From: Mycobacteriales bacterium
GTDB lineage: Bacteria > Actinomycetota > Actinomycetes > Mycobacteriales > SCTD01
Direction of reading: 5' to 3'
Assembly (NCBI GenBank): GCA_030447385.1
Contig: JAUJOY010000002.1
Coordinates: 450,081-514,080, forward strand
DNA: 64,000 nucleotides
Numbering within the stretch: the first letter of the stretch is position 1; each line of letters starts with the position of its first letter. Shown here piece after piece: positions 3,709-64,000 of this stretch. The notes beneath the pieces were generated by a model. That model was given only the letters and a program-made list of their open reading frames with translations. It was not told the origin of the DNA and did no database searches. The translations under genes and the position numbers were made by a program.

Positions 3709-3855
3709 ACGGGCGGTCGCCCTCCATCGTTAGCCGGGCGTCCCGGGCGGGCCGGCGTGCGTTGCCGACCCTAGCGCCGTTACGTGTCTGCTGTGCGACC
3801 GGAGGCGCACGGATTCCGGCGGCTGCCTGGGAAGGCCCGGGCCGTGCCCGGTCGG

Positions 3856-3861
3856 TAGGCT
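3856..3861 (+). promoter_or_regulatory. -10-like hexamer TAGGCT, 6 nt upstream of the ctaB GTG (candidate leaderless promoter)
   Basis: TAGGCT fits the actinobacterial TANNNT -10 pattern. Its last T is 7 nt before the G of the start codon. The spacer (ccactc) has no SD-like purine run. Confidence 0.4.
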
Positions 3862-3867
3862 CCACTC

Positions 3868-4827: not shown

Positions 4828-4844
4828 CGACCGTCCGCCCCCGG

Positions 4845-5663
4845 GTGGCGCTGGCCACCGCCGCCGGCTCGTGGGGTCATGACGTGGACGGCCAGGCTCT
4901 GCTGGCCGCGCTGGACGCCCTCGACGTCGACGCGCTTCCCGTGGTCTGGGACGCCCCGGCGGACTGGGGCTCCTACGACCTGGTGGTCGTCCGCTCGACC
5001 TGGGACTACACGTCGCGGCGCGCGCAGTTCCTCGACTGGGCAGCGTCCGTGCCGCGGCTCGCCAACCCGTCCGCGACGCTCTGCTGGAACACCGACAAGC
5101 ACTACCTGAGCGCCCTCCTCGACGCGGGGGTGCCGGTCGTTCCGACGGAGTTCGTCGCCCCCGGCCAGAGCTACGAGCCGCCGGAGTACGAGCACGTCGT
5201 GAAGCCCGCCGTGTCCGCCGGCTCCCGGGACACGGTGCGCTTCTGCGCCGGGCAGGACTCCTCCGGGCATGCGGGCGGGCTGCTGGCGGCGGGACGCGCG
5301 GTGCTGGTACAGCCCTACCTGGCGCGGATCGACGAGGCAGGCGAGAGCGCGCTGCTGTTCTTCGGCGGCGCCTTCAGCCACGCCGCCCGCAAGGGACCTG
5401 TGCTCGCGCCGGGGGCCGGCCTTCCGCACGAGGTCGAGATCTCGCCCCGCCGGCCGACACCGGCCGAGCACGCCGTCGCCGCAGCGGCCCTGGCGGCCGC
5501 GCCCGGCCCCCTGCTGTACGCGCGGGTGGACCTGGCGCCGGGGCCGGACGGGGAGCCGCTGCTGATGGAGCTCGAGCTGACCGAGCCGTCGCTGTTCCTG
5601 TTCACCTCGCCCGGATCGGCGGAGCGCTGTGCCGAGGCCGTCCTGTGCCGGCTGCGGGGCTGA
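4845..5663 (+). CDS. ATP-grasp domain protein (RimK/glutathione-synthetase-like), function unknown
   Basis: This is the C-terminal part of track ORF 3762..5663. It reads ...LVVVRSTWDYTSRRAQFLDWA...NTDKHYL...EHVVKPAVSAGSRDT...LVQPYL...GESALLFFGG...LLMELELTEPSLF. The upstream part of that ORF is a shadow frame of ctaB. The start is uncertain; I chose GTG 4845. Confidence 0.55.
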   Translation: MALATAAGSWGHDVDGQALLAALDALDVDALPVVWDAPADWGSYDLVVVRSTWDYTSRRAQFLDWAASVPRLANPSATLCWNTDKHYLSALLDAGVPVVPTEFVAPGQSYEPPEYEHVVKPAVSAGSRDTVRFCAGQDSSGHAGGLLAAGRAVLVQPYLARIDEAGESALLFFGGAFSHAARKGPVLAPGAGLPHEVEISPRRPTPAEHAVAAAALAAAPGPLLYARVDLAPGPDGEPLLMELELTEPSLFLFTSPGSAERCAEAVLCRLRG

Positions 5664-6591
5664 GCTCGCGGTCGGCCGGAGCGGCCGGTGGCGGGGCGGC
5701 AGCGAGGGGGCCCCGGTCGCGAAGGGCGAGCACCGCCTGCACAGCGGCGACCAGGACAGCGCAGGCCCCGGCCAGGTGCAGCCCCACCAGGATCACCGGC
5801 AGGTCGGTGAAGTACTGCACCAGGCCGAGCAGCCCCTGTGCGAGCTCCACGCCCAGCAGGACGCCCATCGAGCGCAGCGCCGCCGGGGGAGCTCCCGTGG
5901 CCCGAAGGGCGACGAGGAAGGCCACGGTCAGCCCGATCAGCAGGAACACCAGGTCCGCGTGCACCTGGCTCACCGTCGCCGGGTCCAGACCGGTGCGTCC
6001 GGCTGCCGGGTCGCCCGAGTGGGGGCCGCTCCCCGTGACGACGGTGCCGGCCACCAGGGTCGCCGCGACGAGGGCGAGGAGCCCGTACCCGAGGCGTTGC
6101 AGGGGCGGGGGCACGAGGAGCCGCGGCGGCAGGTCGCCCTCCCCGGCGCGGGCGTGCAGGACGACCGCGAGCGCGATCAGCACCATCGACAGCAGGAAGT
6201 GGGCCATCACGGTCCACGGGTTGAGCCCGGTGAGGACGGTGACGCCGCCGAGCAGCGCCTGCGCCGGGATGCCGAGGAAGACCAGCGTGGCCAGCCGGCG
6301 CATGCCCGGGCGCACCGGGCGCTGGCGCCAGACGGCGACGAGGCAGGCGGCCACGACGGCCGTGAGCACGAAGGTGAGCAGCCGGTTGCCGAACTCGATG
6401 ACGCCGTGGACGGCGTACTCCGCGGTCGGGGTGTAGGTGGTGGTCGTGCACCGCGGCCAGGTGGGGCAGCCCAGTCCGGAGGCGGTGAGGCGCACAGCGC
6501 CGCCCGTGACGACGATGGCGCTGTTGGCGACGACGCTCGCGAGGGCCAACCGGCGCACCGTGCGCGAGGCGGGTCGGCGGAGCACGGGCAC
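5602..6591 (-). CDS. ctaA: heme A synthase (COX15/CtaA family)
   Basis: ...ANSAIVVTGGAVRLTASGLGCPTWPRC... followed by multiple TM helices. I trimmed the start to GTG 6591 so it does not run through the upstream ABC-2 permease gene; the track ORF starts at 6810. Confidence 0.8.
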   Translation of the reverse strand: MPVLRRPASRTVRRLALASVVANSAIVVTGGAVRLTASGLGCPTWPRCTTTTYTPTAEYAVHGVIEFGNRLLTFVLTAVVAACLVAVWRQRPVRPGMRRLATLVFLGIPAQALLGGVTVLTGLNPWTVMAHFLLSMVLIALAVVLHARAGEGDLPPRLLVPPPLQRLGYGLLALVAATLVAGTVVTGSGPHSGDPAAGRTGLDPATVSQVHADLVFLLIGLTVAFLVALRATGAPPAALRSMGVLLGVELAQGLLGLVQYFTDLPVILVGLHLAGACAVLVAAVQAVLALRDRGPLAAAPPPAAPADRELSPAAGTGRPRHSAPPIRAR

Positions 6592-6646
6592 GTCTTCAGG
6601 GTAGGGCGGCGGCGGGTAGGCGGCCTCCCGCCGTGCGTGATCCCCG

Positions 6647-7417
6647 CTACTCCCAGCGGAAGAGCCGGCTCGCGGCGGCGAGGGACCCGACGGCCCACAC
6701 GGCGAGCGTCGCAAGAGGCTGCAGCGGGAGCTCCCCGGCAGTGAGGACCTCGCGCAGGCCGCTGGACAGCGCAGCGCTCGGCAGGAGGGACAGGGCCGGC
6801 TCGGCGGCACCGAAGGCCGCCAGCGGGAACAGGATCCCGCCGAGGACCAGCAGCACGAACCAGACGAGGTTGGCCGCGGCCAGGGTCGTCAGCCCCCGCA
6901 GCGTCCCGCCCAGCAGCAGCCCGAGCCCGCTGAAGGCGACGGTGCCGAGCAGAACCAGAGCCACCACCGCCGCTGCCGACCCGCTGGGGTTCCAGCCGAG
7001 CAGCAGTCCGGTGAGGCAGATCAGCATCACCTGAAGCACCTCGACCGCCAGCACCGCGAGCGTCTTGGCCGCAAGCAGCACGGCTCGCGGAAGCGGGGTC
7101 GCGCCCAGCCGCTTGAGCACGCCGTACTGCCGCTCGAACCCGACTCCGATGGCCTGACCGGTGAACGCGGTGGACATGACGGCCAGCGCCAGCACCCCCG
7201 GTACGAAGAAGTCCGCCCGCTCCTGGCCGTCCACGTCGACGAACGGCACGGTGACGAGCAGGACCAGCAGTCCGAGCGGGATGACGAGGCTGAGCAGCAC
7301 CTGCTCGCCGTTGCGCAGCACGAGGGTGAGCTCGGCGCGGGTCTGGGCCCGCAGCATCCTCGGCAGCGGCGCCGCCCCCGGCTGCGGGGCGAGGGCGCCG
7401 GGGGGCCAGGCGGTCAC
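6647..7417 (-). CDS. ABC-2 type transporter permease
   Basis: This is the C-terminal 257 codons of track ORF 6647..9109. It reads [29 protein letters not shown]... with about 6 TM segments. GTG 7417 overlaps the ATPase stop (GTGA). Confidence 0.8.
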
Positions 7418-32225: not shown

Positions 32226-32975
32226 ATGATCGCCCCTGACCAGCTCCGCCACCTCGCCGGCAAGACCGCCGTCGGACCGGGCGGAGAGAAGATCGGCAAG
32301 GTGGTCGACGTCTACGAGTCGACCGAAGGGCCGCAGGCCACGTTCGTGGCCGTCGCCACCGGCATGCTCGGATCCAGGGCCAGCTTCGTGCCGGTCGCGG
32401 AGGCTGATGTCCGCGGCGACACGCTCGTGCTCCCCTACCCCAAGCAGGTCGTCAAGGACGCGCCGCACATCGAGAACGACGAGGAGCTCACGGCGCCGGA
32501 GGAGGACCGGCTGTACACCCACTACCGGCTCGGCGGGTCGGCGCAGGCACCGGCAGCCGACCCCCGCCAGACCGTCGGCCACGACACCTTCGGACCGACG
32601 ACGGATGACGCGATGACCCGGTCCGAGGAGCACCTGCAGGTCGGCACGCAGCGGGTGGAGTCAGGCCGCGCCCGGCTGCGCAAGTACGTGACCACGCACA
32701 CCGAGACCGTGCAGGTCCCCGTGCGCCGGGAGCAGGTCACCCTCTCGCGCGAGCCGATCGACGAGACCAACGCGCCACAGGCCATGGACGGCCCCGCGAT
32801 CTCCGAGGAGGAGCACGAGATCGTGCTCACCGAGGAGCGACCGGTGGTGGCGAAGGAGGCCGTACCGGTCGAGCGCGTGCGCCTGGGCACCGAGCAGGTG
32901 ACCGAGCAGGTCACCGTCTCGGAGGATGTCCGGAAGGAGCAGATCGACATCGAGGGCGTCGTCCAGAAGGGCTGA
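32226..32975 (+). CDS. PRC-barrel plus DUF2382 (YsnF/AvaK-like) stress-associated protein
   Basis: MIAPDQLRHLAGKTAVGPGGEKIGKVVDVY... is PRC-barrel-like. ...EEHLQVGTQRVESGRARLRKYVTTHTETVQVPVRREQV...EERPVVAKEAVPVERVRL... carries DUF2382-type repeats. GAGAAGGA precedes ATG 32226. Confidence 0.75.
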   Translation: MIAPDQLRHLAGKTAVGPGGEKIGKVVDVYESTEGPQATFVAVATGMLGSRASFVPVAEADVRGDTLVLPYPKQVVKDAPHIENDEELTAPEEDRLYTHYRLGGSAQAPAADPRQTVGHDTFGPTTDDAMTRSEEHLQVGTQRVESGRARLRKYVTTHTETVQVPVRREQVTLSREPIDETNAPQAMDGPAISEEEHEIVLTEERPVVAKEAVPVERVRLGTEQVTEQVTVSEDVRKEQIDIEGVVQKG

Positions 32976-33026
32976 GCCGCTCCGAGCAGCAGCCCCGACC
33001 TCCCGTCACCCGGGCACAATGCCCGG

Positions 33027-33890
33027 GTGACGGTGGTCTGGGCCGGGGACTTCCCGGACCCGTTCGTGCTGCGGGTGGGCTCGTCCTACCTCGCCTTCGC
33101 GACCGAGACGGCAGGGATCGACGTCCAGGTGATGGCCTCACCGGACCTGCGGACGTGGACCCATCTCGGCAACGCGCTCGCCGCCGTGCCGCCATGGGCC
33201 GAGCGTGGCCACACCTGGTCGCCGGCGGTGCTCGAGCGCGCGCACGGCTTCGTCCTCTACTACGCCACGCGCCTCGCCTCCGAGGGCCGTCAGGCGCTGT
33301 CGGTCGCGGTCGCGGACCGTCCCGAGGGGCCCTACGTCGACCGCACGTCCGCCCCGCTCGTCTACCAGCGCACGCGGGGCGGCTCGATCGACCCGGACAC
33401 GTTCGTCGACGACGACGGCCGGGCGTACCTCGTCTGGAAGAGCGAGGACAACGCCTTCGGGGGCCGCACCTGGATGTGGGTGCGGGAGCTGACGCTGGAC
33501 GGGCTCGGCTTCTCGGGCCGGCCGGTGCGCATCCGTCGGCCGGCCTCGACGTGGGAGCGGACACTCGTCGAGGCGCCGTGCCTGTTCCGGGTCGGCTCGC
33601 AGGTGCACCTGCTGTTCAGCGGCGGGCGCTGGGACACCCCGGAGTACGGCGTCGGGCACGCCGTCGGGCCGGGCGCGACCGGCCCCTTCCTCGTCACCAC
33701 GCGGTCCGGTCCCTGGCTGTCCGGCCCGCACGGGCCCGGTGGCCAGTCGGTCGTCACGGACCCCTTCGGCGGCCTGCACCTGGCCTACCACGGCTGGCTG
33801 GACGGAGTGCACGGGTACGGGCGCGGGGGCGTCCGCGCGCTGCACGTCGACCCGCTCGACGTGTCCGAGGGCACCCCCCGGCTGCGCTGA
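33027..33890 (+). CDS. glycoside hydrolase family 43-like protein
   Basis: ...GDFPDPFVLRVGSSYLAFAT..., ...GGSIDPDTFVDDDGRAYLVWK... and ...VEAPCLF... match the GH43 five-bladed propeller catalytic Asp/Asp/Glu contexts. Confidence 0.7.
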   Translation: MTVVWAGDFPDPFVLRVGSSYLAFATETAGIDVQVMASPDLRTWTHLGNALAAVPPWAERGHTWSPAVLERAHGFVLYYATRLASEGRQALSVAVADRPEGPYVDRTSAPLVYQRTRGGSIDPDTFVDDDGRAYLVWKSEDNAFGGRTWMWVRELTLDGLGFSGRPVRIRRPASTWERTLVEAPCLFRVGSQVHLLFSGGRWDTPEYGVGHAVGPGATGPFLVTTRSGPWLSGPHGPGGQSVVTDPFGGLHLAYHGWLDGVHGYGRGGVRALHVDPLDVSEGTPRLR

Positions 33891-47053: not shown

Positions 47054-47452
47054 GTGGAGTCCTCCGACGCCGTTCCCTGGTGGCGCGACTCGGCCCGCCG
47101 CAACCGGGCGGTGCTGGTCGCCTTCGCGTCGCTCGCTCTCGCGGGGATCCTCTTCCCGGCCTTCACCAACTACCTGTTCGCGGGGGACCGCCGGGTGCTG
47201 GTCGTGTCGCTCGAGGAGAACGCCGGGCAGGAGCGCCGTGAGGGGCTGAAGCGGGCCTGCGGCACTCTGCCGGGCATCTCCGTGGTGGCGGACAAGGGCA
47301 ACCCCGACCCGCGGATCCAGGGCCGCTTCCCGGTCCGCTTCGACATCGCCGACACCACGACCCAGCAGGAGGCGGCGCTGCTGAAGTGCCTCAACGACAA
47401 CCGCGAGCGCTTCCAGGTGCGCGGCTACCTGCCGGAGAACGACGGCGACTGA
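47054..47452 (+). CDS. hypothetical membrane-anchored protein (132 aa)
   Basis: It has one N-terminal TM segment (AVLVAFASLALAGILFPAF) followed by a soluble domain. I recognised no family. The start is GTG. Confidence 0.45.
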   Translation: MESSDAVPWWRDSARRNRAVLVAFASLALAGILFPAFTNYLFAGDRRVLVVSLEENAGQERREGLKRACGTLPGISVVADKGNPDPRIQGRFPVRFDIADTTTQQEAALLKCLNDNRERFQVRGYLPENDGD

Positions 47453-47529
47453 ACCGGTTCCACCGTGAAGTGACAAGCGTGCCGCGCTGGGTAGTGCGCA
47501 GTTCCACGGCTGCGACGAAGGGTGCGCTC

Positions 47530-50500
47530 ATGGGGTTGACGGAGGCCTTCCTCGGTTGGCCGGTGGTCCGCCAGCTGACCGGGAACGATCCGCTGGGCCG
47601 GGGAGCCGCAGCGCAGTCGGCGCGTACGGCCGCCCTCCAGCCGCGTACCGCCACGGCCGACCGGGTGGCCCGGACGGTGTGCCCCTACTGCGCCGTCGGG
47701 TGCGGACAGCTGGCCTACGTCAAGGACGAGAAGGTCGTCCAGATCGAGGGTGACCCCGACTCCCCGATCTCCCGGGGGCGGCTGTGCCCGAAGGGGTCGG
47801 CGAGCGAGCAGCTGGTCAACAGCGACCGCCGCAAGACCACCGTCCTCTACCGGCGACCGCGCGGGACCGAGTGGGAGGAGCTCGACCTCGACACCGCGAT
47901 GTCGATGGTCGCCGACCGCGTCGCTGACGCTCGCGAGCGCACCTGGCAGGACAGCGACGAGCAGGGCCGGCCGCTGCGCCGGACCATGGGCTTCGCGAGC
48001 CTAGGCGGGGCCACCCTCGACAACGAGGAGAACTACCTCATCAAGAAGCTGTTCACCGCCCTCGGGGCGGTCCAGATCGAGAACCAGGCCCGCATATGAC
48101 ACAGCTCCACCGTCCCCAGTCTGGGGGCCTCGTTCGGGCGCGGCGGCGCCACCACTGAGCAGCAGGACCTGGCCAACGCCGACTGCATCGTCATCCAGGG
48201 CTCGAACATGGCCGAGTGCCACCCGGTCGGCTTCCAGTGGGTGATGGAGGCCAAGGCCCGGGGCGCCAAGGTCATCCACATCGACCCCCGCTTCACCCGC
48301 ACGTCGGCCGTGTCGGACGTGCACGTGCCGCTGCGGGCGGGCAGCGACATCGCCTTCCTCGGCGGAATCGTCAAGTACATCCTGGACAACGAGCTCTACT
48401 TCCGGGAGTACGTCACCGCCTACACCAACGCTGCCACGTTGATCAGCGAGGACTACCAGGACACCGAGAACCTCGACGGGCTGTTCTCCGGCTATGACGC
48501 GGCCACCGGTACGTACGACACCTCCAGCTGGGCGTACGAGGGGCACGACGGCGGCGAGAGCCGCCGCGGTGCGGTCGACGGGGCGGGTGCGACCGGCGAT
48601 GGCGAGCACGAGGCGGAGGAGCGCGAGCGCGCCGCCGGTCAGGAGCTCGGCAACCGCGGCGCCAACCTCGAGCACTCCGAGGTGGAGCGGGACGAGTCGC
48701 TGCAGCACCCGCGCTGCGTCCTGCAGGTCCTGAAGCGGCACTACGCCCGCTACACCCCCGAGGTCGTCGAGGAGGTGTGCGGCGTACCGAAGGAGCTGTT
48801 CCTGCAGGTCTGCGAGGCGGTCACGGTCAACAGCGGGCGCGAGCGCACGACGGCCTGGGTCTACTCGGTCGGCTGGACGCAGCACTCGGTCGGCGTGCAG
48901 TACATCCGCGGCTCGGCGATCATCCAGCTGCTCCTCGGCAACATGGGCCGGCCGGGCGGCGGGATCATGGCGCTGCGCGGCCACGCCAGCATCCAGGGCT
49001 CGACCGACATCCCGACGCTCTACAACATCCTGCCGGGATACCTGCCGATGCCCAGGGCCGAGCACGCGAGCCTGCGGGACTACCTCGGGTCCATCGGCAG
49101 CCCTGGCCAGAAGGGCTTCTGGACGCAGGCTCCCGCTTACACGACCAGCCTGCTCAAGGCCTGGTTCGGTGACGCCGCCACGGCGGAGAACGACTACGGC
49201 TTCGGCTGGCTGCCGCGCATCAACGGCAACCACGGCACGTACCAGACCGTGATGGACATGCTCGACGACAAGGTCGAGGGCTACTTCCTGCTCGGCCAGA
49301 ACCCCGCCGTCGGCTCCGCGCATGGACGCATGCAGCGGATGGGCATGTCGCACCTGAAGTGGCTGGTCGTGCGCGACCTGCAGCTGATCGAGTCCGCGAC
49401 GTTCTGGAAGGACGCGCCGGAGATCGCCACCGGTGAGCTGCGCACGAAGGACATCGAGACCGAGGTCTTCTTCTTCCCGGCGGCCACGCACGTCGAGAAG
49501 GAGGGCACGTTCACCCAGACGCAGCGGATGCTGCAGTGGCGCGAGAAGGCGGTGTCGCCGCCGGGTGACGCACGCAGCGAGCTGCACTTCTTCTTCCACA
49601 TGGGCCGCATGCTGCGCGAGCGCTACGAAGGATCGACGCTCGAGCGCGACCAGGGGCTGCTCAGCATGACCTGGGACTACCTCGAGCCGGGCGAGAGCGA
49701 GGAGCCGAGCGCCGACCTGGTCCTGCGCGAGGTCAACGGCTGCCACCTCGCCGGCGACGAGGCCGGTCGACCGCTGAGCACGTTCGTCGAGATGAAGGAC
49801 GACGGCACGACGTCCGGCGGGTGCTGGATCTACACCGGCGTCTACGCGAACGGGATCAACCAGGCGGCCCGGCGCACGTCCTGGCGCGAGCAGGGCGGGC
49901 CGTGGCTCGCCAGGGAGTGGGGCTGGGCCTGGCCGGCGAACCGGCGCATCCTCTACAACCGGGCGTCGGCCGACCCCGAGGGCAAGCCGTGGAGCGAGCG
50001 CAAGGCGCTGGTCTGGTGGGACGAGGAGGCCGGCCGCTGGACCGGGCACGACGTCCCCGACTTCCCGGTGACCAAGGCGCCGTCCTACCGCCCACCCGAA
50101 GGCGCATCGGGGCCGGACGGGCTCGCCGGCGACGACCCGTTCATCATGCAGGCCGACGGCAAGGGGTGGCTCTTCGCGCCCAGCGGGCTGCTGGACGGCC
50201 CGCTCCCCGCGCACTACGAGCCGCACGAGTCGCCGGTGCGCAACCCGCTGTACTCCCAGCAGAGCAACCCCACCCGGCTGAACTTCCGGCGCAAGGACAA
50301 CCTGTCCAACCCGCCCGTGACCGAGCCCGGCAACGACGTGTTCCCCTACGTCTTCACGACCTACCGGCTCACCGAGCACCACACGGCGGGCGGGATGAGC
50401 CGCTGGGTGCCCTACCTGTCGGAGCTGCAGCCGGAGTTCTTCTGCGAGGTCTCACCGGAGCTGGCCCGCGAGCGGGGTCTGGAGAACCTCGGCTGGGCGA

Positions 50501-50847
50501 CGATCGTCACCGCGCGCACCGCGGTGGAGGCGCGGGTGCTCGTGACCGACCGCGTCGTGCCGCTGGACATCGCCGGAACGGTCGTCCACCAGATCGGGCT
50601 GCCCTACCACTGGGGCGTCGGCAGCGACGCGTACGTGTCCGGCGACTCGGCGAACGACCTGTTCGCGCTGTCCCTCGACCCGAACGTGCTCATCCAGGAG
50701 TGCAAGGCCGCCACGTGCGACATCCAGCCGGGGCGACGACCGACCGGCCCGGACCTGCTGCGCTTCGTCGAGGAGTACCGCAGCCGCGCCGGCGTCACCG
50801 TCGAGACGGGCAACGCGCTGCTGACGCTTCCGGAGGCGACCGCATGA
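47530..50847 (+). CDS. fdhA: formate dehydrogenase alpha subunit (FdnG/FdoG-like, bis-MGD), selenocysteine at TGA 48097-48099
   Basis: Track ORFs 47386..48099 and 48208..50847 are in the same frame. No stop other than this TGA separates them (checked by hand). The junction reads ...AVQIENQARI-U-HSSTVPSLGASFGRGGATT..., which aligns with the E. coli FdnG ...NQARVUHGPTVASLAPTFGRGAMT... motif as I recall it. The N-terminal CPYCAVGCG is the 4Fe-4S motif. Confidence 0.9.
48100..48135 (+). promoter_or_regulatory. candidate bacterial SECIS hairpin
   Basis: Twelve nt after the UGA the sequence GUCCCC-AGUCU-GGGGGC (48112-48128) can form 6 pairs including one G-U. Its apical AGUCU loop resembles the GGUCU/AGUCU loops of E. 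coli fdhF/fdnG SECIS elements as I recall them. Confidence 0.5.
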
Positions 50848-51908
50848 GCGAGCGGGGCACCACCTCCTGGTACGGCCCGCTCGACCCGGCTCCGGACGCC
50901 GGCTGGACGGAGGCGCCGCCGAGGAAGGGGTTCTTCACCGACACGAGCATCTGCATCGGGTGCAAGGCCTGCGAGGTCGCCTGCAAGGAGTGGAACGCCG
51001 TCCCTGAGGACGGGCTGCTGATGCTCGGCTCCTCCTACGACAACACCGGCGCCCTCGGCGCGAGCACCTGGCGGCACGTGGCGTTCATCGAGCAGCCCAA
51101 GGCCCTGGGCCCCCAGGAGGCCGGGTTCGCCGGCACGGCAGCCGGTCCGCCGGGAAGCGACGTGCTGAACCGGACCGCCGACTCGGCGCTGACCGGTGAC
51201 CGCACCGCCCTCGGCACGGACTCCTCCAGGCTGGAGGTCGGGCCAGCCGGGCTCGGCGCCGTCGACCTCGGCATGCCGTCCATGACGCTGCCGGGCTCGG
51301 TGGACGGTGCGCAGCGCACGGACTTCCGCTGGCTGATGGCCTCGGACGTCTGCAAGCACTGCACCCACGCGGGGTGCCTGGACGTGTGCCCGACAGGGGC
51401 GCTGTTCCGCACCGAGTTCGGCACCGTCGTGGTGCAGGACGACATCTGCAACGGCTGCGGCTACTGCGTACCCGCCTGTCCCTTCGGCGTCATCGACCGG
51501 CGGGCGGGGGAGAAGGGGGTCACCAAGAACGCCGGGATCGCCCAGAAGTGCACGCTGTGCTACGACCGGCTCGGGGACGGGCTGCAGCCGGCCTGCGCCA
51601 AGGCCTGCCCCACGACGTCCATCCAGTTCGGCGACCTCGACGAGCTGCGGGAGCGGGCGGAGAAGCGGGTCGAGCAGATGCACGCCCAAGGCATCCCCAG
51701 CGCCCGGCTGTACGGCGAGGACCCCTGCGACGGGGTGGGCGGCGTCGGCGCGTTCTTCCTGCTGCTCGACGAGCCCGAGGTGTACGGCCTTCCGCCGGAC
51801 CCGGTCGTGACCACCAGGGACCTCCCGGCGATGTGGAAGAAGGCCGCGCTGGCGGCGGCCACGATGCTCGCCGGCGCGGTCGCGGTCTTCGTGGGCGGCG
51901 GCTCGTGA
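50844..51908 (+). CDS. fdhB: formate dehydrogenase iron-sulfur (beta) subunit, four-cluster ferredoxin with a C-terminal TM anchor
   Basis: It has CIGCKACEVACKEWN, CKHCTHAGCLDVCP, CNGCGYCVPACP and CTLCYDR...CAKACP motifs, and the C-terminus is ...AALAAATMLAGAVAVFVGG. ATG 50844 overlaps the alpha stop (ATGA). Confidence 0.9.
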   Translation: MSERGTTSWYGPLDPAPDAGWTEAPPRKGFFTDTSICIGCKACEVACKEWNAVPEDGLLMLGSSYDNTGALGASTWRHVAFIEQPKALGPQEAGFAGTAAGPPGSDVLNRTADSALTGDRTALGTDSSRLEVGPAGLGAVDLGMPSMTLPGSVDGAQRTDFRWLMASDVCKHCTHAGCLDVCPTGALFRTEFGTVVVQDDICNGCGYCVPACPFGVIDRRAGEKGVTKNAGIAQKCTLCYDRLGDGLQPACAKACPTTSIQFGDLDELRERAEKRVEQMHAQGIPSARLYGEDPCDGVGGVGAFFLLLDEPEVYGLPPDPVVTTRDLPAMWKKAALAAATMLAGAVAVFVGGGS

Positions 51909-53020
51909 ACGACCGGCCCGCCGGGGCCCTCGACGAGGGGCCTGCGACGCCGGGTGCTGCGGAGGCGGTAGGCACGTCCGACCCAGGTCCGGCCGCGACC
52001 GCGGTGGTGGGCTCCGGCGGTGGCCGCCGGCGCAAGGGCGGCCGCGGCCGCGGGGAGCGGGGCGAGCAGCCGATGGTGCCGCCGGCCGAGTTCACCTCGT
52101 ACTACGGCCGGCCGGTGGTCAAGGCCGCGCCGTGGGAGCACGACATCCCGGCCTACCTGTTCCTCGGCGGCGTGGCTGCCGGGTCCTCGCTGCTGTCCGC
52201 CGGAGCCGACCTGACCGGCCGTCCCGCACTGCGGCGCACGGGCCGGTTCGGCGCGCTCGTCGGCCTCGCTCTGAGCATGATCGCCCTGGTCCGTGACCTC
52301 GGCCGCCCCGAGCGGTTCCACCACATGCTGCGGGTGGCCAAGCCCACCTCGCCGATGTCGGTCGGCACGTGGATGCTCACCCTCTACGGACCTCTCGCCG
52401 CTCTCGCCGCCGCGGGGGAGCTGCGCCCCTTCCTGCCCCCGCGCCTGCGCGACGGGCGGCTGGGGCGGGTGCTGGGGGGCGGTGCCCGGCCGGCCGGCCT
52501 CACCGCCGCGGTGGTCGCGCCCGCGATCGCCTCCTACACCGCGGTGCTGCTGTCCAACACCGCGGCACCGACCTGGCACGCGGCCCACCGCCACCTGCCC
52601 TTCGTCTTCGTCGGGTCCGCCTCGGCGGCCTCCGGCGGCCTCGGCATGATGGCCACGCCGGTGTCCGAGGCGGGACCGGCTCGTCGGCTGGCCCTCGGCG
52701 GCGCCGTGCTCGAGCTGGCGGTCGAGCACCGGATGGAGGCGGCGATGGGCATCACGGCCGAGCCGCTGCACGCCGGCCACGCGGGGATGCTGATGAGGGC
52801 CAGCAAGGCCCTGACCGCAGCCGGCGTGGTGGGCACAGCGCTGGTCGGCTCCCGCAGCCGGGCCGGCGCCCTGGCCTCCGGCGCCGCCCTGCTCGCCGGG
52901 TCCGCCTGCCTGCGCTTCGGCGTCTTCGAGGCGGGTCAGGCGTCCGCGCGGGACCCGAAGTACACCGTCGTCCCGCAGCGCGAGCGCCTTGAGCGCGGGG
53001 GGCCTACGCGGTCGGCGTAG
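51905..53020 (+). CDS. NrfD/PsrC-family integral membrane subunit of the formate dehydrogenase
   Basis: ...YGRPVVKAAPWEHDIPAYLFLGGVAAGSSLL... is followed by about 8 TM helices. GTG 51905 overlaps the beta stop. The first roughly 55 aa are Gly/Arg-rich, so a later start (MVPPAEF) is possible. Confidence 0.75.
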   Translation: MNDRPAGALDEGPATPGAAEAVGTSDPGPAATAVVGSGGGRRRKGGRGRGERGEQPMVPPAEFTSYYGRPVVKAAPWEHDIPAYLFLGGVAAGSSLLSAGADLTGRPALRRTGRFGALVGLALSMIALVRDLGRPERFHHMLRVAKPTSPMSVGTWMLTLYGPLAALAAAGELRPFLPPRLRDGRLGRVLGGGARPAGLTAAVVAPAIASYTAVLLSNTAAPTWHAAHRHLPFVFVGSASAASGGLGMMATPVSEAGPARRLALGGAVLELAVEHRMEAAMGITAEPLHAGHAGMLMRASKALTAAGVVGTALVGSRSRAGALASGAALLAGSACLRFGVFEAGQASARDPKYTVVPQRERLERGGPTRSA

Positions 53021-55702: not shown

Positions 55703-56695
55703 TCAGCGGACCTCGACCGCGGCCGAGCCGGAGGCGACGACCTCGCCGATGACCGGGTAGCCGGGGACCTCGCCGATGACGAGCAGCCCCCCGCTGGTCT
55801 GCGCGTCCGCGAGCAGCAGCAGCTCGTCCTCGCTGACCGCGGACGCCAGGTGCGGCCGCACCCAGTCGAGGTTGCGCTTCGTGCCGCCGCTGACGTAGCC
55901 GTCCCGCAGCGCCTCCCGAGCCCCCTCCAGGTAAGGCACCGCCGCGGCGTCGACCACCGCCGTGACCCCGCTGGCCCGCATCATCTTGTAGAGGTGGCCG
56001 AGCAGCCCGAACCCGGTGACGTCGGTGGCCGCCTTCGCGCCCGCGGCGAGAGCGGCCGCGCAGGCGTCGCGGTTGAGCGACGCCATGCTGGCCACGGCCT
56101 GGGCGAACACCTCACCGGTGCTCTTGTGGCGGTTGTTGAGCACCCCGACACCGAGCGGCTTGGTCAACGTGATGGGGAGCCCGGCGACCGCAGCGTCGTT
56201 GCGCAGCAACCGCTGGGGGTCGACCAGCCCCGTGACCGCCATGCCGTACTTGGGCTCGGGGTCGTCGATGCTGTGCCCGCCGGCGACGAAGCAGGCGGCC
56301 TCCCTGGCGATGTCGTAGCCACCGCGCAGCACCTCGGTGAGGACCGACTTCGGCAGCTTGTCCATCGGCCAGCCGACGAGGTTGACCGCGACGACGGGAC
56401 GGCCGCCCATCGCGTACACGTCCGACAGCGCGTTGGCCGCGGCGATCCGCCCCCAGTCGTAGGCGTCGTCCACGACGGGGGTGAAGAAGTCAGCTGTCGC
56501 GACCACCGCGGTCGAGTCGTCGACCCGCACCACCGCGGCGTCGTCCCCGTCGTCGAGGCCCACGAGCAGGTCGGGGGACACGTGGCCGGTGAGGCCGCGT
56601 ACGACCTCCTCGAGCTCACCTGGCGGGATCTTGCAGGCGCAGCCGCCGCCGGAGGCGTACTGGGTGAGGCGGAAGGTCCCGATCGTCGCGGTCAT
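55703..56695 (-). CDS. selD: selenide, water dikinase (selenophosphate synthetase), Cys form
   Basis: MTATIGTFRLTQYASGGGCACKIPPG... aligns with the E. coli RLTQYSHGAGCGCKISP region. Also present are ...DDAAVV..., ...DFFTPVVDD..., ...GGHSIDDPEPKYG... and ...DVTGFGLLGH.... The ATG overlaps the AOR stop (ATGA). Confidence 0.92.
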   Translation of the reverse strand: MTATIGTFRLTQYASGGGCACKIPPGELEEVVRGLTGHVSPDLLVGLDDGDDAAVVRVDDSTAVVATADFFTPVVDDAYDWGRIAAANALSDVYAMGGRPVVAVNLVGWPMDKLPKSVLTEVLRGGYDIAREAACFVAGGHSIDDPEPKYGMAVTGLVDPQRLLRNDAAVAGLPITLTKPLGVGVLNNRHKSTGEVFAQAVASMASLNRDACAAALAAGAKAATDVTGFGLLGHLYKMMRASGVTAVVDAAAVPYLEGAREALRDGYVSGGTKRNLDWVRPHLASAVSEDELLLLADAQTSGGLLVIGEVPGYPVIGEVVASGSAAVEVR

Positions 56696-58509
56696 GGAAC
56701 CACCGTACGTTCCGGCCGCCCATCCGCGCCGAGTCCGCGGGCGGCGTAGTAGCCCGACACCATGTCCCGCAGCCGCTCGGCTGTCAGGGCAGCGGTGCGG
56801 CCCGACCCGACCGTCAGGGTCGAGCTCAGGAAGCGCTCGGGCAGCCAGTCGTCCTCCGGCTGCCAGCCCTCACGGAGGTTGTACGCCCGCTTGGCCAGCA
56901 CGATGCGCTGCGCCGTCGCGCGCAGCTCGCCCGCGTCGAGGTCCCACCCGGTGACCAGCGACAGCAGCTGCGCCCACTGCGCGAACGGGTCGTCGAAGAC
57001 CTTGCGCAGGAACGAGCACAGGATCATCGAGTCCATCACCGCCGCGCGATCCTCGGACTCGATCGCCCCGCGCACGTGCTCGACCCCGCCGGCGAGGCGG
57101 TCCAGGTCGCCGGAGAGGTCGGCCTCGTACGCTCCGCTCCGGTTGTGGTCGGCGCCCCGCGCGTTGACGGCCATCCCGAGCGCCATCGCCTGCATGGTGC
57201 GCGGCTCGTAGCCGGGCAGCTCGAGGCCCTTCACCTGGGCGGCGAGCTCCAGGGACCCCTGCCCCACGACGCCCGCAGCGGCCCGGGAACCCCGCGCCAG
57301 CAGCGGGCCGATCCCAACGCCGGAGCCGATCTCGTCCAGTGCCCGCAGCACGGCTGCGCCGTCGCCGAAGCGCAGCCACGGCACGTCCAGCAACCCGCGC
57401 TCGACGCACTCCATCGCCCAGGCGATCGTGCCCCCGGCGGAGATCGTGTCGATGCCCAGCTCGTCGCAGCGGGCACTGGCCGCGAGCACCGCATCCGGAT
57501 CGGACACCCCGCACATCGGGCCCAGGGCGGAGACGTTCTGGTGCTCCATCCGCACCTTCCTGCCGCCCTTGTCGCGGTAGAGGTGCTCGCACCCGATGGA
57601 GCACGACGCGCACGACGACCGGGTGACGCCGCGCGCCTGCGCGAGCTCCTGCGCACCCAGCTGTGGCGCGCCCTCGAACACCGCCTCCTGGAAGTTGCGT
57701 GTGGGCAGGGTCGACAGGGCGTTGAAGGCCAGGACGTTGGCCATCGTCCCGAGCTCCCGGTACTTCGCGGTCGCCGAGCCGAGCGAGCGCGCGCGGAGGT
57801 CCTTCGCGGCCGCGAGAACCCCGGCAGGATCGGCGGGAGCCACCTTGGTGGTCGCGTGGACGGCCACGGCCTTGAGGTTCTTGCTGCCCATCACCGCGCC
57901 GAGGCCGCCCCGCCCGGCGTGCCTGCCGTCGTGCGAGATCGTGGCGTACGCGACGCCGCGCTCGCCGGCGGGGCCGATCGACGCCACCTGCCAGCCACCG
58001 CCGAGCCGCCGGCGGACCGCCGCCTCCGCGGCCGCCGCCGACGAGCCCCACTCCGCACCGGCGCTGGACAGCGTGACCTCGGAGCCGTGGATGCTGAGCA
58101 CCGACGGTCGCACGGCGCGTCCGACGAGGACGAGCGCGTCGTGGCCGGTGAGCTTGCCGCTGAGCGCGAAGTGGCTGGATGCGAGAGCATCGGTGAGCAG
58201 CCCGGTCAGCGGCGACTTGGCGAGCACCGCGAACTTGGCGCTCGTCGTCAGCGGGGTACCGACCAGCGGCGAGAAGACGAAGGCCAGCGGGGCCTCGGGG
58301 GAGAGCGGGTCGACCCCCGGCGGCCCCAGCTCGGTCAGCAGCCAGGTGCCGAGCCCGACCCCGCCGAGGTGGTCGCGCAGCACCCGCTCGGGAAGCGGCA
58401 GCACCCGCGTTGAGCCGTCGCCCACGTCGACGACGAGGGCGCGGCCGAAGTAGCCGCCGGGGACGCGGCTCCGACCCGCCTCCGGCTGCTCCACCTGCGC
58501 CTCACCCAC
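56692..58509 (-). CDS. aldehyde:ferredoxin oxidoreductase (AOR) family tungsto/molybdo-pterin enzyme
   Basis: 605 aa with ...GGYFGRALVVDVGDGS... (AOR N-domain start), ...GLGTWLL..., ...IGPAGE..., ...GRGGLGAVMGSKNLKAV... and CASCSIGC plus a later Cys (4Fe-4S ligands). GTG 58509 overlaps the upstream stop by 8 nt. GTG 58494 is an alternative start. Confidence 0.88.
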   Translation of the reverse strand: MGEAQVEQPEAGRSRVPGGYFGRALVVDVGDGSTRVLPLPERVLRDHLGGVGLGTWLLTELGPPGVDPLSPEAPLAFVFSPLVGTPLTTSAKFAVLAKSPLTGLLTDALASSHFALSGKLTGHDALVLVGRAVRPSVLSIHGSEVTLSSAGAEWGSSAAAAEAAVRRRLGGGWQVASIGPAGERGVAYATISHDGRHAGRGGLGAVMGSKNLKAVAVHATTKVAPADPAGVLAAAKDLRARSLGSATAKYRELGTMANVLAFNALSTLPTRNFQEAVFEGAPQLGAQELAQARGVTRSSCASCSIGCEHLYRDKGGRKVRMEHQNVSALGPMCGVSDPDAVLAASARCDELGIDTISAGGTIAWAMECVERGLLDVPWLRFGDGAAVLRALDEIGSGVGIGPLLARGSRAAAGVVGQGSLELAAQVKGLELPGYEPRTMQAMALGMAVNARGADHNRSGAYEADLSGDLDRLAGGVEHVRGAIESEDRAAVMDSMILCSFLRKVFDDPFAQWAQLLSLVTGWDLDAGELRATAQRIVLAKRAYNLREGWQPEDDWLPERFLSSTLTVGSGRTAALTAERLRDMVSGYYAARGLGADGRPERTVVP

Positions 58510-59344
58510 CCGCGTCCGCCGACAGGAACGCGACCACGTCGCCGCGAACGAGGGGGAGCTCGGGGTCCCGGGACATCTGGTCGCCGTTGAGGGCCGCCAG
58601 GATCTGCCGCGAGAGGGTCAGGCCCACGGCCTGCGCCGCCGCCGCCAGGGTCGCTGCTCGCGCCGCGCCACGGTCCCGGTCGCCACTGCGGGCGAGGACC
58701 CCGAACCGCTGCACGGTGACCTCCGGCGCCGGGCGATCGCGCGCCGCGGCGTAGTCCTCGGGCGAGTTGACGCCGCACACCGAGTCGAGGTCCGGGTCGA
58801 GTCTGGACAACGTCGGATCCGACAGCAGTGCGGCGTCGTCGAGCTCCACGACCACCGTGCCCTCCTGCAGGAACGCCGGCCGGAGCCGGTCCGCCGCCAC
58901 CAGCCCCCCGGCGTACCCGGCCATCGCCGTCCGATAGCAGGCGGCCAGCGGCTGGCGGTGCCCGCCGACCACGGGGAGGACGACGTCGGCCCCGTCGGCG
59001 TCCCGCGTCACCCGTCGGACGAAGGCCGGATGCAGCAGCGGCAGGTCGGTCGAGCAGACGAAGGCGGTCTCAGCCTCGTCCGCGAGCGCGGCCAGCCCCA
59101 CGGCGATCCCCTGCAGGGGACCGCGGCCCTCGGCCGGGTCGTCCAGGACCGAGATGCACGGCGGAAGCGCGGGCAGCGGCTGGCCCGGCGCCCGGACGAC
59201 GACGACCCGGCCGTCGACGCCACGGGACACGATCCCGGTGACCCGGCGAAGCAGCGTCGAGCCGTGCCACTCCAGGGCGGCTTTCGGGCTGCCCATGCGG
59301 GCCGAGCGACCACCGGCGAGCACCAGTCCGGCTGACGCGGCCAC
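58502..59344 (-). CDS. fusion protein: MobA-like molybdenum cofactor nucleotidyltransferase (N) plus MoaD/ThiS-like beta-grasp sulfur carrier ending in Gly-Gly (C)
   Basis: The N-terminus LVLAGGRSARMGSPKAAL... is the MobA LAGGxxxRMG motif. The C-terminal roughly 80 aa read ...EVTVQRFGVLAR...LVRGDVVAFLSADAGG*, which resembles MoaD ...DGDEVAFFPPVSGG*. It is a single uninterrupted high-GC3 frame (checked by hand). Confidence 0.7.
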   Translation of the reverse strand: MAASAGLVLAGGRSARMGSPKAALEWHGSTLLRRVTGIVSRGVDGRVVVVRAPGQPLPALPPCISVLDDPAEGRGPLQGIAVGLAALADEAETAFVCSTDLPLLHPAFVRRVTRDADGADVVLPVVGGHRQPLAACYRTAMAGYAGGLVAADRLRPAFLQEGTVVVELDDAALLSDPTLSRLDPDLDSVCGVNSPEDYAAARDRPAPEVTVQRFGVLARSGDRDRGAARAATLAAAAQAVGLTLSRQILAALNGDQMSRDPELPLVRGDVVAFLSADAGG

Positions 59345-59406
59345 GCCGTGCAGCGTACGTGGGCGCGTGATGGCCGCCTCCGGACGCAGGTGCGAGGATT
59401 TGCCGC

Positions 59407-59748
59407 ATGGCCTACGTGATCACCGCCACCTGCGTCGACGTCAACGACATGGCCTGCGTGGAGGAGTGCCCGGTCGACTGCATCTACGAGGGTGCGCGCA
59501 AGTCCTACATCCAGCCCTCCCAGTGCATCAACTGCGCCGCCTGCCAGCCGGTCTGCCCGGTCGACGCCATCTACTCGGCCCGCCAGCTTCCCGAGCACCT
59601 CGCTGTCGACCAGCAGGACAACCGCGCCTTCTTCGTCGAGGTCCTGCCGGGCCGGGACGCCCCTCTGGGGTCACCTGGCGGATCGCGCCGGACCGGCCCG
59701 GTCGGTGTCGACACCCCGCGCATCGCGGCGTTGCCGGCGCGGCCCTGA
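59407..59748 (+). CDS. fdxA: 7Fe-type ferredoxin (FdxA-like)
   Basis: MAYVITATCVDVNDMACVEECPVDCIY...CINCAACQPVCPVDAIY is the 3Fe-4S plus 4Fe-4S motif pattern. It is divergent from the mobA::moaD-AOR-selD operon with a 62-bp gap. Confidence 0.85.
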   Translation: MAYVITATCVDVNDMACVEECPVDCIYEGARKSYIQPSQCINCAACQPVCPVDAIYSARQLPEHLAVDQQDNRAFFVEVLPGRDAPLGSPGGSRRTGPVGVDTPRIAALPARP

Positions 59749-61310: not shown

Positions 61311-63233
61311 TCACGCGGGGCCCGGCTCGAGCCCGTCCAGGAGGCCCCGCCGCCGCAGCAGGTCGACGACCGCCTTCGCCGCCTGCTCCGGCGTCGACGC
61401 CGTGGTGTCGATGCGCAGCTCCGGGTGCTCGGGAGGCTCGTAGGGGGAGTCGATCCCGGTGAAGTCCGGCAGCTCGCCGCGCCGCGCCTTCGCATACAGC
61501 CCCTTGGTGTCCCGCGACTCCGCGACCTCCAGCGGCGCGTCGACGAACACCTCGACGAACTCGTCCGGCTCGACCAGGGCGCGCGCCGTCGCCCGCTCCG
61601 CCCGGAACGGCGAGATGAACGACGTCAGCACCACGAGGCCCGCGTCGACCATGAGCCGGCTCACCTCCCCGACCCGGCGGATGTTCTCGTGCCGGTCGCT
61701 GTTCCCGAAGCCGAGGTCGGAGTTGAGCCCGTGCCGGACGTTGTCGCCGTCGAGCAGGTAGGTGTGCACGCCGAGCGCGTGCAGCTGCTGCTCGACGAGG
61801 TCGGCGATCGTCGACTTCCCGGCTCCGGACAGCCCGGTGAACCACACGACGTACGGCCGGTGGCCCTTCAACGCCGCGTGCGCCCGCTTGTCGACCTCGA
61901 CCGCCTGCCAGTGCACGTTGTGCGAGCGGCGCAGCGGTGCGCGCAGCATGCCAGCGGCCACCGTGGCGTTGGTGAGCCGGTCGAGAACGATGAAGCCGCC
62001 CATGTCGCGGTTGTCGTCGTAGGGGTCGAAGGCGATCGCGCGGTCCAGGCGCAGGTCGCACACCCCGATCTCGTTGAGCCGCAGCGTCGTCCCTGGCGCC
62101 TGCTCGAAGGTGTTGACGTCGATGCGGAACTCCGGGCCGGACAGGGACGCGCCCACGGTCCGGGCGCCGACCTTCACCAGGTAGGCGCGCCCGGGCCGCA
62201 GCTCCTCCTCGGCCATCCACACGACGTGCGCCCGGAACTGGTCCGCGGCCGCCGCCGGCTCGTCGGCCGCGCACAGGACGTCGCCGCGGCTGCAGTCGAT
62301 CTCGTCCGCGAGGGTGAGGGTGACCGACTGCCCGGCCACGGCCGCGTCCAGGTCGCCGTCCAGGGTGACGATGCGCGCCACCGTGCTCGTGGTCCCCGCG
62401 GGCACGACCCGCACCCGGTCGCCGACGCGCACGGTTCCGCCGACGATCGGCCCCGCGAACCCGCGGAAGTCGAGGTCGGGCCGGCTGACCCACTGCACCG
62501 GCATCCGGAACGGCCCGGCCTGCCGGTCGTCGTCGACCTCGACCCCCTCGAGGTAGTCCATGAGCGTCGGCCCGGAGTACCACGGCATGTGCCCGCTGCG
62601 GGCGGTGATGTTCTCCCCGCGCAGGGCCGACATCGGGATGCAGGTGACGTCCGAGAGCCCGATCCCGGCGGCGACGTCGCGGTACTGCTCCTCGATCCGG
62701 TCAAACACGTCCTGCGAGTAGTCGACGAGGTCGAGCTTGTTGACCGCGACGGCGACCTTGCCGATGCCGAGCAGGCTGACGAGGTAGCTGTGCCGGCGGG
62801 TCTGCGTCAGCACGCCGTACCGCGCGTCGACGAGGATCACCGCGGCGTCGGCGGTCGAGGCGCCGGTGACCATGTTGCGGGTGTACTGCTCGTGGCCGGG
62901 GGTGTCGGCGACGATGAACTTGCGCGTCTCGGTGGAGAAGAAGCGGTACGCGACGTCGATCGTGATGCCCTGCTCGCGCTCCGCGCCGAGACCGTCGACG
63001 AGCAGGGCGAAGTCGAGCTCGTCCCCTTGCGTGCCGACCTTCTTCGAGTCGACCTCGAGAGCGGCCAGGTGGTCCTCGAAGACCATCTTCGACTCGTAGA
63101 GCAGTCGGCCGATCAGCGTGCTCTTGCCGTCGTCCACGCTGCCGCAGGTGAGGAAGCGCAGCAGGCTCTTGTGCTGGTGGGCGAGCAGGTAGGCGTCGAT
63201 GTCCTCGGCGATGAGGTCGGAGGTGTGGGCCAC
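61311..63233 (-). CDS. cysNC: bifunctional sulfate adenylyltransferase subunit 1 / adenylylsulfate kinase
   Basis: 640 aa. The N-terminal GTPase part has ...[21 protein letters not shown]... and ...DTPGHEQYT.... The C-terminal APS kinase part has ...[16 protein letters not shown].... Confidence 0.95.
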
Positions 63234-64000
63234 CTAGAAGTAGCCCTCCTGCTTCTTCTTCTCCATCGAGCCGGACGAGTCGTGGTCGATCGCCCGGCCC
63301 TGCCGCTCCGAGGTGGTCGCCAGGAGCATCTCCTGGATGATCGCCGGGAGCGTGTCGGCCAGGCTCTCGACGGCGCCGGTCAGCGGGTAACAGCCCAAGG
63401 TGCGAAAGCGCACGCTGCGCAGCTCGGGCCGCTCGTCCGGGCGCAGCGGCATCCGCTCGTCGTCGACCATGATCAGGACCCCGTCGCGCTCGACGACCGG
63501 CCGCTTGTCGGCGAAGTAGAGCGGGACGATGGGGATCGACTCCAGGTGGATGTACTGCCACACGTCGAGCTCGGTCCAGTTCGACAGCGGGAAGACGCGC
63601 ATGCTCTCGCCCGGGTTGCGGCGCACGTTGTAGACGCTCCACAGCTCGGGCCGCTGCAGCTTGGGGTCCCACCGGTGCTCGCGCGAGCGGATCGAGAACA
63701 CCCGCTCCTTGGCCCGCGACTTCTCCTCGTCGCGACGGGCGCCGCCGAACGCCGCGTCGAACCCGTGCAGGTCGAGCGCCTGCTTGAGGCCCTCGGTCTT
63801 CCAGATGTCGGTGTGGGCGGAGGAGCCGTGGTCGAAGGGGTTGATGCCGAGCCGCTCCGCCTCGGGGTTGCGGTGGACGAGCAGCTCGAGCCCGAGGTCG
63901 GCGACGTGCCGGTCGCGGAACTTGTACATCTCGCGGAACTTCCACGTCGTGTCGACGTGCAGCAGCGGGAACGGCGGCTTGGCCGGGAAGAACGCCTTGC
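63234..64000 (-). CDS. cysD: sulfate adenylyltransferase subunit 2 (C-terminal part; N-terminus beyond the right edge)
   Basis: ...[23 protein letters not shown]...[13 protein letters not shown]...[13 protein letters not shown]...KKKQEGYF*. The frame stays open upstream of the track's ATG through to position 64000. Confidence 0.92.

Follow-up and report, generated by a model that had tools for sequence, protein, structure and literature searches.

Does the TGA at positions 48097-48099 of a 64,000-nucleotide stretch of DNA from a Mycobacteriales bacterium (the window, meaning that whole stretch) end a gene, or is it read as selenocysteine (Sec) within the catalytic (alpha) subunit of a formate dehydrogenase? 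Standard gene calling gives two open reading frames (ORFs) here, 47386..48099 and 48208..50847, which an earlier sequence-only reading had joined into one selenoprotein gene. Follow-up analyses of the frame, its relatives, the adjacent RNA structure and the Sec genes make it almost certain that 47530-50847 is a single gene for the catalytic subunit, in which the UGA at codon 190 is decoded as Sec.

One reading frame across the UGA

The starts of the two ORFs are 822 nt apart (3 x 274) and therefore in the same frame, and translation of 47386-50847 encountered the TGA as its sole internal stop. The claim that the ORFs share one frame and are parted only by this codon was thus borne out. The residues around the codon read ...IENQARI*HSSTVPSLGASFGRGGATTEQQDLANADCIVIQGSNMAECHPVGFQW..., or, with the UGA read through, ...ENQARI-U-HSSTVPSLGASFGR. 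The likely start of the alpha subunit gene is ATG 47530; a GAAGGG-type ribosome-binding sequence stands before it, and the match to the family profile NF041513 begins at residue 7. From this ATG the frame is continuous for 1105 codons but for the TGA. The 915 codons after it contain no other stop and have a G+C content at third codon positions (GC3) of 0.96, in a window of about 73% G+C throughout. The computed mass of the 1105-residue read-through product, about 122 kDa, agrees with the roughly 120 kDa given earlier.

Whole-protein profile scores were computed with C in place of U. The read-through product belonged to NCBIfam family NF041513.1 (formate_DH_Act), scoring 1940.2 bits against a cut-off of 1400 in a single stretch that placed residues 7-1086 on profile positions 3-1067 of 1067. 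It also belonged to TIGR01553, the alpha subunit of formate dehydrogenase N (FDH-N), with 992.9 bits against a cut-off of 814.2. The C-terminal fragment alone scored 1573.7 bits against NF041513.1. The two fragments matched this profile at 3-185 and 187-1067, so the TGA falls at profile position 186. The N-terminal fragment contains the Molybdop_Fe4S4 domain and the C-terminal fragment PF00384 and PF01568 (molybdopterin and molybdopterin guanine dinucleotide-binding); together they form the N-terminal 4Fe-4S, molybdopterin and dinucleotide-binding arrangement of formate dehydrogenases with a molybdenum or tungsten (Mo/W) bis-pyranopterin guanine dinucleotide (bis-PGD) cofactor.

The best matches among solved structures were Desulfovibrio vulgaris FdhA (6sdr and others, E = 1e-93), D. 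gigas 1h0h and Escherichia coli FdnG 1kqf. The sequence-only reading had assigned the TGA to the Mo-ligand Sec/cysteine (Cys) column of FdnG-type enzymes and had called for an alignment. When this was run, the TGA aligned with X (Sec) in the 6sdr segment IEHQARIXHSPTVPAL and with Cys in the U-to-C variant 9qm0, in keeping with the assignment. A histidine follows the TGA, as in the Q-A-R-[IV]-U/C-H motif (metal ligand, then His) of Mo/W-bis-PGD formate dehydrogenases.

Sister assembly GCA_030446855.1 carries the window's 189-residue fragment on a contig of 487,674 bp, at a locus (L161) with 21 differences from the window in 20,570 bases (99.9% identical). As foreseen, its automatic annotation splits the gene, into products of 189 and 879 amino acids. 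This call corresponds to a locus of two genes, one for a small Fe-S protein and one, starting at ATG 48208, for a molybdopterin protein of 879 residues; this ATG does exist, and the automatic call uses it. However, the 36 codons between the TGA and this ATG encode the most conserved active-site segment, HSSTVPSLGASFGRGGAT, which is collinear with the solved structures and, from position 187, with the family profile. The DNA just 5′ of 48208 is coding and has at best a weak Shine-Dalgarno-like motif. A pair of separate genes is therefore highly improbable.

Conservation of the TGA was assessed in two scans. The first covered one genome per species (GTDB representatives) and took the 80 nearest loci, from Actinomycetota, including many actinomycete genera, and Dormibacterota, at 72-81% identity. 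TGA occupied the Sec codon in all of them (80/80). With loci truncated by a contig end set aside, the frame remained open for about 850-950 codons past it in 72 of 76. The second scan, a control, searched metagenome contigs with a Cys-type homologue as query; despite this query, the codon was TGA in 71 of the 80 loci recovered, TGC in 8 and TAG in 1. Both scans together gave TGA at the exact codon in 151 of 160 loci. A protein search yielded 85 homologues with Cys at the Sec column. It also showed 26 database proteins that end exactly at ...ENQARI, 25 of which have 189 residues; the 189-residue proteins are 84-95% identical to the window fragment. Judged by sequence, the proteins ending there are relatives split at the same TGA.

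Several individual loci departed from this pattern. In a metagenome-assembled genome (L007) the frame is open for only about 208 codons after the TGA, probably through a frameshift or assembly error, and three further loci also have a shortened frame. The locus with TAG (L129, metagenome) has it in place of TGA about 137 codons into the match, with the hairpin perfectly intact; a sequencing error, recent inactivation or another cause may account for it. Other residues recorded at the Sec column were W (P0001, P0082), G (P0035), L (P0003) and R (P0022, P0075). For the W and G entries, the simplest explanation is that genes were called with translation tables in which TGA codes for an amino acid.

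These counts bear on the origin of the codon. That the TGA is a nonsense mutation in a decaying pseudogene, which would give only the 189-residue fragment, is very unlikely: it is kept at the exact codon in those 151 loci across many genera and two phyla, no further stop follows in 915 codons of GC3 0.96, and the hairpin and Sec machinery genes described below are intact. After the TGA, the ratio of nonsynonymous to synonymous substitution rates (dN/dS) was 0.22 and 0.28 against the two closest relatives (85-89% amino acid identity; protein-guided codon alignment), values that are only moderately low and were probably inflated by the extreme codon bias, which depresses dS. The same ratio against the sister assembly was uninformative, with one difference in 3318 nt. 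What speaks for a pseudogene is that gene callers give two fragments and that some mycobacteria are reported to have pseudogenised formate dehydrogenase genes that retain the Sec insertion sequence, or SECIS (PMC13449736).

An error of sequencing or assembly that turned TGC into TGA is vanishingly unlikely. Cys-type homologues with TGC exist, but nothing specific favours an error. The sister assembly has the identical codon, its one difference in the 3318 nt of the gene lying elsewhere, and TGA is found in 150 other loci; moreover, the TGA is accompanied by a Sec-type hairpin and a Sec-type proline.

A charged, low-complexity, indel-rich segment (GHDGGESRRGAVDGAGATGDGEHEAEERERAAGQELG...) occupies about 48540-48740, alpha residues about 338-400, and its length varies among close relatives. 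After about residue 340 it shifts the register of an ungapped codon comparison with two relatives (L162, L163).

The sequence on either side of the UGA

The hairpin sequence, GUCCCCAGUCUGGGGGC, begins 12 nt 3′ of the UGA; its bases are numbered here from the U of the UGA. The minimum free energy (MFE) fold has a 7-bp stem and a GUC loop. The sequence-only reading had pointed to 48112-48128, twelve nt past the UGA, as a possible hairpin whose loop is like that of E. coli. Position and likeness stood, while its five-nucleotide AGUCU loop gave way to a GUC triloop closed by an A22-U26 pair. Likewise, the hairpin formed in the fold it had proposed as a check. At 73% G+C, though, its folding energy did not stand apart from that of shuffled sequences: z was 0.12 over 64 nt, -0.28 over 40 nt and -1.98 over the 23-nt core. 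Whether the hairpin arose by chance was therefore decided by comparison with relatives.

The hairpin alignment comprised the window and the 80 genome loci, with 79 distinct sequences. The 7-bp stem was paired in 99.8% of cells, and none of 500 shuffles reached either the observed paired fraction or the covariation score of the stem. When the 3′ partner of the stem was slid by 1-3 columns as a control, pairing fell to 28-66%. Pair 30-42 was CG in 39 of the distinct sequences, UA in 23, UG in 12, GU in 4 and GC in 1, with no mismatch. Because this pair joins the third base of a Val codon to that of a Gly codon, and the changes are synonymous, its covariation is explicable only at the RNA level. 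Among TGA loci, the third bases of hairpin codons +6, +7 and +8 (Pro CCC, Ser/Gly xGU, Leu xUG) were invariant (154/154), and those a few codons away varied freely. The AGT in the hairpin loop is the only AGT among the 26 AGY codons of the window's formate dehydrogenase gene.

Two characteristics of a bacterial SECIS were present. The upper stem begins 12 nt from the UGA, within the expected range of about 11-13 nt on the 3′ side, and is conserved in 79 of 79 distinct relatives; the apical G23 and U24 lie in a G23-U24-C25 loop that was invariant at all loci. A third, the bulged U17, was absent; U17 pairs with G31 or A31 (UG 46, UA 32) in a continuous stem. On this comparative evidence the hairpin is a conserved, covarying SECIS, and SelB would be expected to bind it.

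The relation between Sec- and Cys-type orthologs, which the sequence-only reading had also proposed for comparison, followed the codon: the large TGA group keeps the hairpin and the TGC group does not. In the eight Cys-type loci (L081-L083, L086, L088, L141, L151, L160) only 4-6 of the 7 hairpin pairs are kept, GC-preferred codons (CTC, GGC) are used, and position +6 is Ala, Val or Ser rather than Pro. These loci read TVAGLG, TVAALG, TVVGLG or TVSGLG, where Sec-type loci read TVPSLG or TVPGLG. Decay of the hairpin in Cys-type loci shows that the structure goes with the TGA rather than with the protein sequence. It appears that the SECIS dictates the Pro residue, which is freed once Cys replaces Sec.

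Run over the whole window at permissive settings, Rfam returned three hits, among them a single SECIS match, RF01989 (SECIS_3) at 48094-48155, which starts 3 nt before the UGA. The match had E = 0.32 in the window and 0.00092 locally. Further sub-threshold Rfam matches (mir-2861, Pab91, GNAS-AS1, mir-3960) were rejected as artefacts of G+C-rich hairpins.

The codon directly 5′ of the UGA was also unusual. This ATA is the sole ATA among the gene's 34 Ile codons, and ATC accounts for 279 of the 281 Ile codons in the window's other genes. In 149 of the 154 TGA loci the codon before the UGA was ATT or ATA, as against 94.4% ATC among the other Ile codons of the same ORFs. The Arg codon that precedes it (in the window, within 48091-48096) showed an excess of T at the third base, at 47%. 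In Cys-type loci the codon that precedes Cys is GTC, GTG or ATC. The bias before the UGA has the look of selection on the sequence 5′ of the recoded stop, and a check limited to one mechanistic paper found no mention of such a preference. We consider it a tentative and rather doubtful proposal that the recoding signal extends 5′ of the UGA as an undescribed context element, beside a SECIS variant whose 7-bp stem is uninterrupted and lacks the bulged U17. Such an element might act through a wobble-paired tRNA in the P site, or by keeping the UGA unpaired, and so tip the competition between SelB and release factor 2 (RF2).

Selenocysteine machinery and gene neighbourhood

Within the window, selD was found 4.9 kb from the end of the alpha gene, matching the earlier estimate of about 5 kb. 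ARAGORN and Rfam at its gathering threshold found no tRNA-Sec or other RNA family in the window, and neither motifs (GDKLLGGPQAG, GHVDHGKT) nor NCBIfam scans of the window genes revealed selA or selB there. These genes were located in the sister assembly. A SelA protein (P0200), matched by a SelA query from relative L016, led to a locus (L164) that overlaps window positions 61556-64000 with 1 mismatch in 2,445 nt. It encodes a tRNA-Sec (ARAGORN; Rfam 72.2 bits), selA (422 bits, cut-off 268) and selB (273 bits, cut-off 242), starting about 0.8, 3.6 and 4.9 kb beyond the window end (about 64.8, 67.6 and 68.9 kb). The Sec-decoding set of selA, selB, selC and selD is thus complete, with selD in the window and the rest in the sister locus. 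The sequence-only reading had held that the locus would be a pseudogene if orthologs all had a sense codon, the hairpin lacked conservation and the genome lacked selA, selB and selC; on each count the opposite was found.

Among relatives, tRNA-Sec lies within 10 kb of the formate dehydrogenase gene in about 60% of the loci examined, and in L016 the order is formate dehydrogenase operon, selD, selC, selA, selB. In the sister locus, positions 3220-7293 (about 64.8-68.8 kb) hold the tRNA-Sec, a phage-integrase fragment, a 39-codon ORF and a major facilitator superfamily (MFS) transporter gene, followed by selA-selB. It looks as if an insertion at the tRNA gene separated selC from selA.

The presence of this machinery also bears on whether the UGA is read outside the Sec system, by a reassigned code (UGA as Trp or Gly) or by near-cognate suppression. 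Reassignment of UGA to Trp has lately been reported in some Actinomycetota (PMC13462651), and there are the few database entries with W or G at the Sec column. Yet TGA is the normal stop of 23 of the 28 window genes, the alpha and beta subunit genes included, so the genetic code is standard; the dedicated hairpin and the four genes selA, selB, selC and selD speak against it too. Decoding by such a route is exceedingly improbable.

Several points weigh against decoding of codon 190 as Sec. The case for selenium incorporation comes from sequence and not from experiment. Folding energy of the 40-nt and 64-nt stretches is no better than that of shuffled sequence, and dN/dS is only moderately low, as noted above. 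The RF01989 score of 25.1 bits falls short of the gathering threshold of 63 bits, so that the hairpin is not a member of that family. Its apical stem-loop fits the RF01989 model, but the lower-stem pairs are not formed, and U17 is paired here and bulged in E. coli; the paired U17, the uninterrupted stem and the unformed lower stem account for the low score. The hairpin would work like SECIS_3, although it does not qualify as a curated member. Finally, selC, selA and selB were observed in the DNA of the 99.9% identical sister assembly and not in the window itself. Set beside these points, the sequence features, their conservation, the covariation, the family membership and the machinery genes are established here.

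In E. coli, a complex of SelB, guanosine triphosphate (GTP) and Sec-tRNA(Sec) binds the SECIS loop and delivers Sec at the UGA in competition with RF2, and SelD and SelA make Sec-tRNA from Ser-tRNA(Sec) (PMC4513850, PMC13449736). By analogy, we infer Sec insertion, SelB binding and enzyme activity at this locus. With a ribosome at the UGA, the 7-bp hairpin 12 nt downstream would present its GUC loop (G23, U24), to which SelB, carrying GTP as well as Sec-tRNA(Sec), would bind. The Sec-tRNA(Sec) would then be delivered to the A site in competition with RF2, and 915 more codons would be translated. Selenophosphate would be supplied by SelD, encoded 4.9 kb away, and the tRNA-Sec, SelA and SelB would come from the genes just past the window's right end. 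In the product, Sec at codon 190 would ligate the metal beside the catalytic histidine.

The alpha gene is the first of an operon and is followed by genes for an Fe-S (beta) subunit and an NrfD-type membrane subunit (Table 1). The sister assembly calls these two as 354 and 371 amino acids, respectively. Against TIGR01582 (formate dehydrogenase beta subunit) the beta subunit scored 169 bits, under the cut-off. The NrfD-type subunit is probably a quinone-interacting anchor, and from its predicted subunits the enzyme would be a membrane-associated three-subunit Mo/W formate dehydrogenase (alpha, Fe-S beta and NrfD-type anchor). The first 45 residues of the alpha subunit, MGLTEAFLGWPVVRQLTGNDPLGRGAAAQSARTAALQPRTATADR, judged by reading, contain no RR motif or hydrophobic core of a twin-arginine export signal. 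Without such a visible signal and with an NrfD-type subunit, its topology and quinone-coupling partner may differ from those of E. coli FDH-N.

Table 1. Positions of the features of the formate dehydrogenase locus in the window
Feature	Positions	Strand	Basis
Formate dehydrogenase alpha (catalytic Mo/W-bis-PGD) subunit gene, UGA read through	47530..50847	+	NF041513.1, TIGR01553
N-terminal [4Fe-4S] domain (CxxCxxxC...C), 5′ of the UGA	47662..47823	+	Pfam PF04879 Molybdop_Fe4S4, residues 45-98, E = 1.3e-19
Ile codon ATA directly 5′ of the UGA	48094..48096	+	Codon counts in gene, window and relatives
Predicted UGA selenocysteine codon, Mo/W ligand, followed by catalytic His codon CAC	48097..48099	+	Alignment to 6sdr, profile position 186
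Putative SECIS upper hairpin; stem 48112-48118 with 48122-48128, loop G23 U24 C25 48119-48121	48112..48128	+	MFE fold, comparative pairing
Iron-sulfur (beta) subunit gene, start overlapping the alpha stop (ATGA)	50844..51908	+	Fer4_11 and other 4Fe-4S Pfam domains
NrfD-type integral membrane subunit gene	51905..53020	+	Pfam PF03916 NrfD, PF14589 NrfD_2
selD, selenophosphate synthetase, Cys form (GGGCACK)	55703..56695	-	TIGR00476, 393.9 bits (cut-off 125)

An MFS transporter gene and a subtilase gene lie past the operon. Beyond them, the minus strand of 55703-59419 carries a mobA-like gene, an aldehyde:ferredoxin oxidoreductase (AOR family) gene and selD in what looks like one operon, with a 4-nt overlap between the stop of the AOR gene and the start of selD. 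The arrangement differs in relatives such as L016, where selD faces selC-selA-selB. Directly 5′ of the formate dehydrogenase gene, 47054-47452 (plus strand) is an ORF of 132 residues that is coding-like in composition (GC3 0.96) and matched nothing in Pfam or NCBIfam; relative L162 has an equally long ORF in the same position.

The window was also scanned for further in-frame TGAs with coding-like composition on both sides, which yielded three more sites, at 12139, 22866 and 32973. The first two lie immediately before the starts of sufC and of an acyl-CoA dehydrogenase gene. The TGA at 32973 was rejected as a recoding site, since it marks a normal boundary between two genes that share a frame, with a terminator-like hairpin. 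In 32973-33033 a perfect 14-bp inverted repeat follows this TGA (33003-33016 with 33020-33033) and explains the spurious Rfam matches mir-2861 and Pab91.

Comparison with known systems

The correct annotation of the locus is one 122-kDa selenoenzyme, not two fragments or a pseudogene. Metabolic predictions for the organism change with this annotation: formate oxidation would be coupled to the quinone pool, and selenium and either Mo or W would be required. For scans, the locus is a clean positive control in which the in-frame TGA, a GC3 unchanged across it and a nearby selD flag a selenoprotein.

FdhA is the largest and most widespread bacterial selenoprotein family, and Actinobacteria are listed among the phyla with selenoproteins (PMC1794560). 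A 2026 study described, across mycobacteria, the Sec machinery, formate dehydrogenase as the single predicted selenoprotein, and its SECIS; it also noted that standard annotation often misses these genes, UGA being the commonest stop in Actinobacteria (PMC13449736). NCBI keeps a dedicated model for the actinobacterial formate dehydrogenase family (NF041513). A Sec formate dehydrogenase with a SECIS at 47530-50847 is accordingly a correct identification of something already known and ordinary in Actinobacteria.

The closest known system is this actinobacterial family, including the mycobacterial enzyme (PMC13449736), with the same UGA column, a SECIS directly downstream and Sec genes nearby; a Mycobacterium sp. 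locus (L044) has the same hairpin as the window. Nothing essential differs. The genes selC-selA-selB lie about 14 kb past the operon here, with unrelated genes between, and adjoin the operon in many relatives; here an integrase fragment and an MFS gene also stand between selC and selA. Cys-type members (e.g. Streptomyces P0002 and P0016) share about 70% identity and the same architecture, and differ in having TGC for TGA, no Pro at +6, GC-preferred codons and a degraded hairpin.

E. coli FdnG/FdoG (1kqf) resembles the alpha subunit in its Sec-His active site and N-terminal 4Fe-4S domain, and the operon in its beta Fe-S subunit. No twin-arginine motif was seen here by reading, and the third subunit is of NrfD type (PF03916, PF14589) where E. 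coli has cytochrome b FdnI, so that no FdnI-type subunit is present. The E. coli fdnG SECIS shares the G23-U24-C25 loop, the A22-U26 closing pair and the distance from the UGA. It differs in its bulged U17, which is paired here (U-G or U-A), and in the window the model's lower stem does not form. In each of 5426 E. coli genomes the RF01989 consensus maps to fdnG, and in most it also maps to a second place (fdoG).

The W/Sec enzyme FdhAB of D. vulgaris (6sdr, 6sdv) provided the best solved-structure match, E = 1e-93 over residues 45-338, and the local motifs, IEHQARI-U-HSPTVPAL in D. vulgaris and IENQARI-U-HSSTVPSL in the window, are nearly identical. D. vulgaris FdhAB is a periplasmic, two-subunit, deltaproteobacterial enzyme, whereas the operon described here includes a membrane subunit gene and its alpha subunit has no recognisable export signal.

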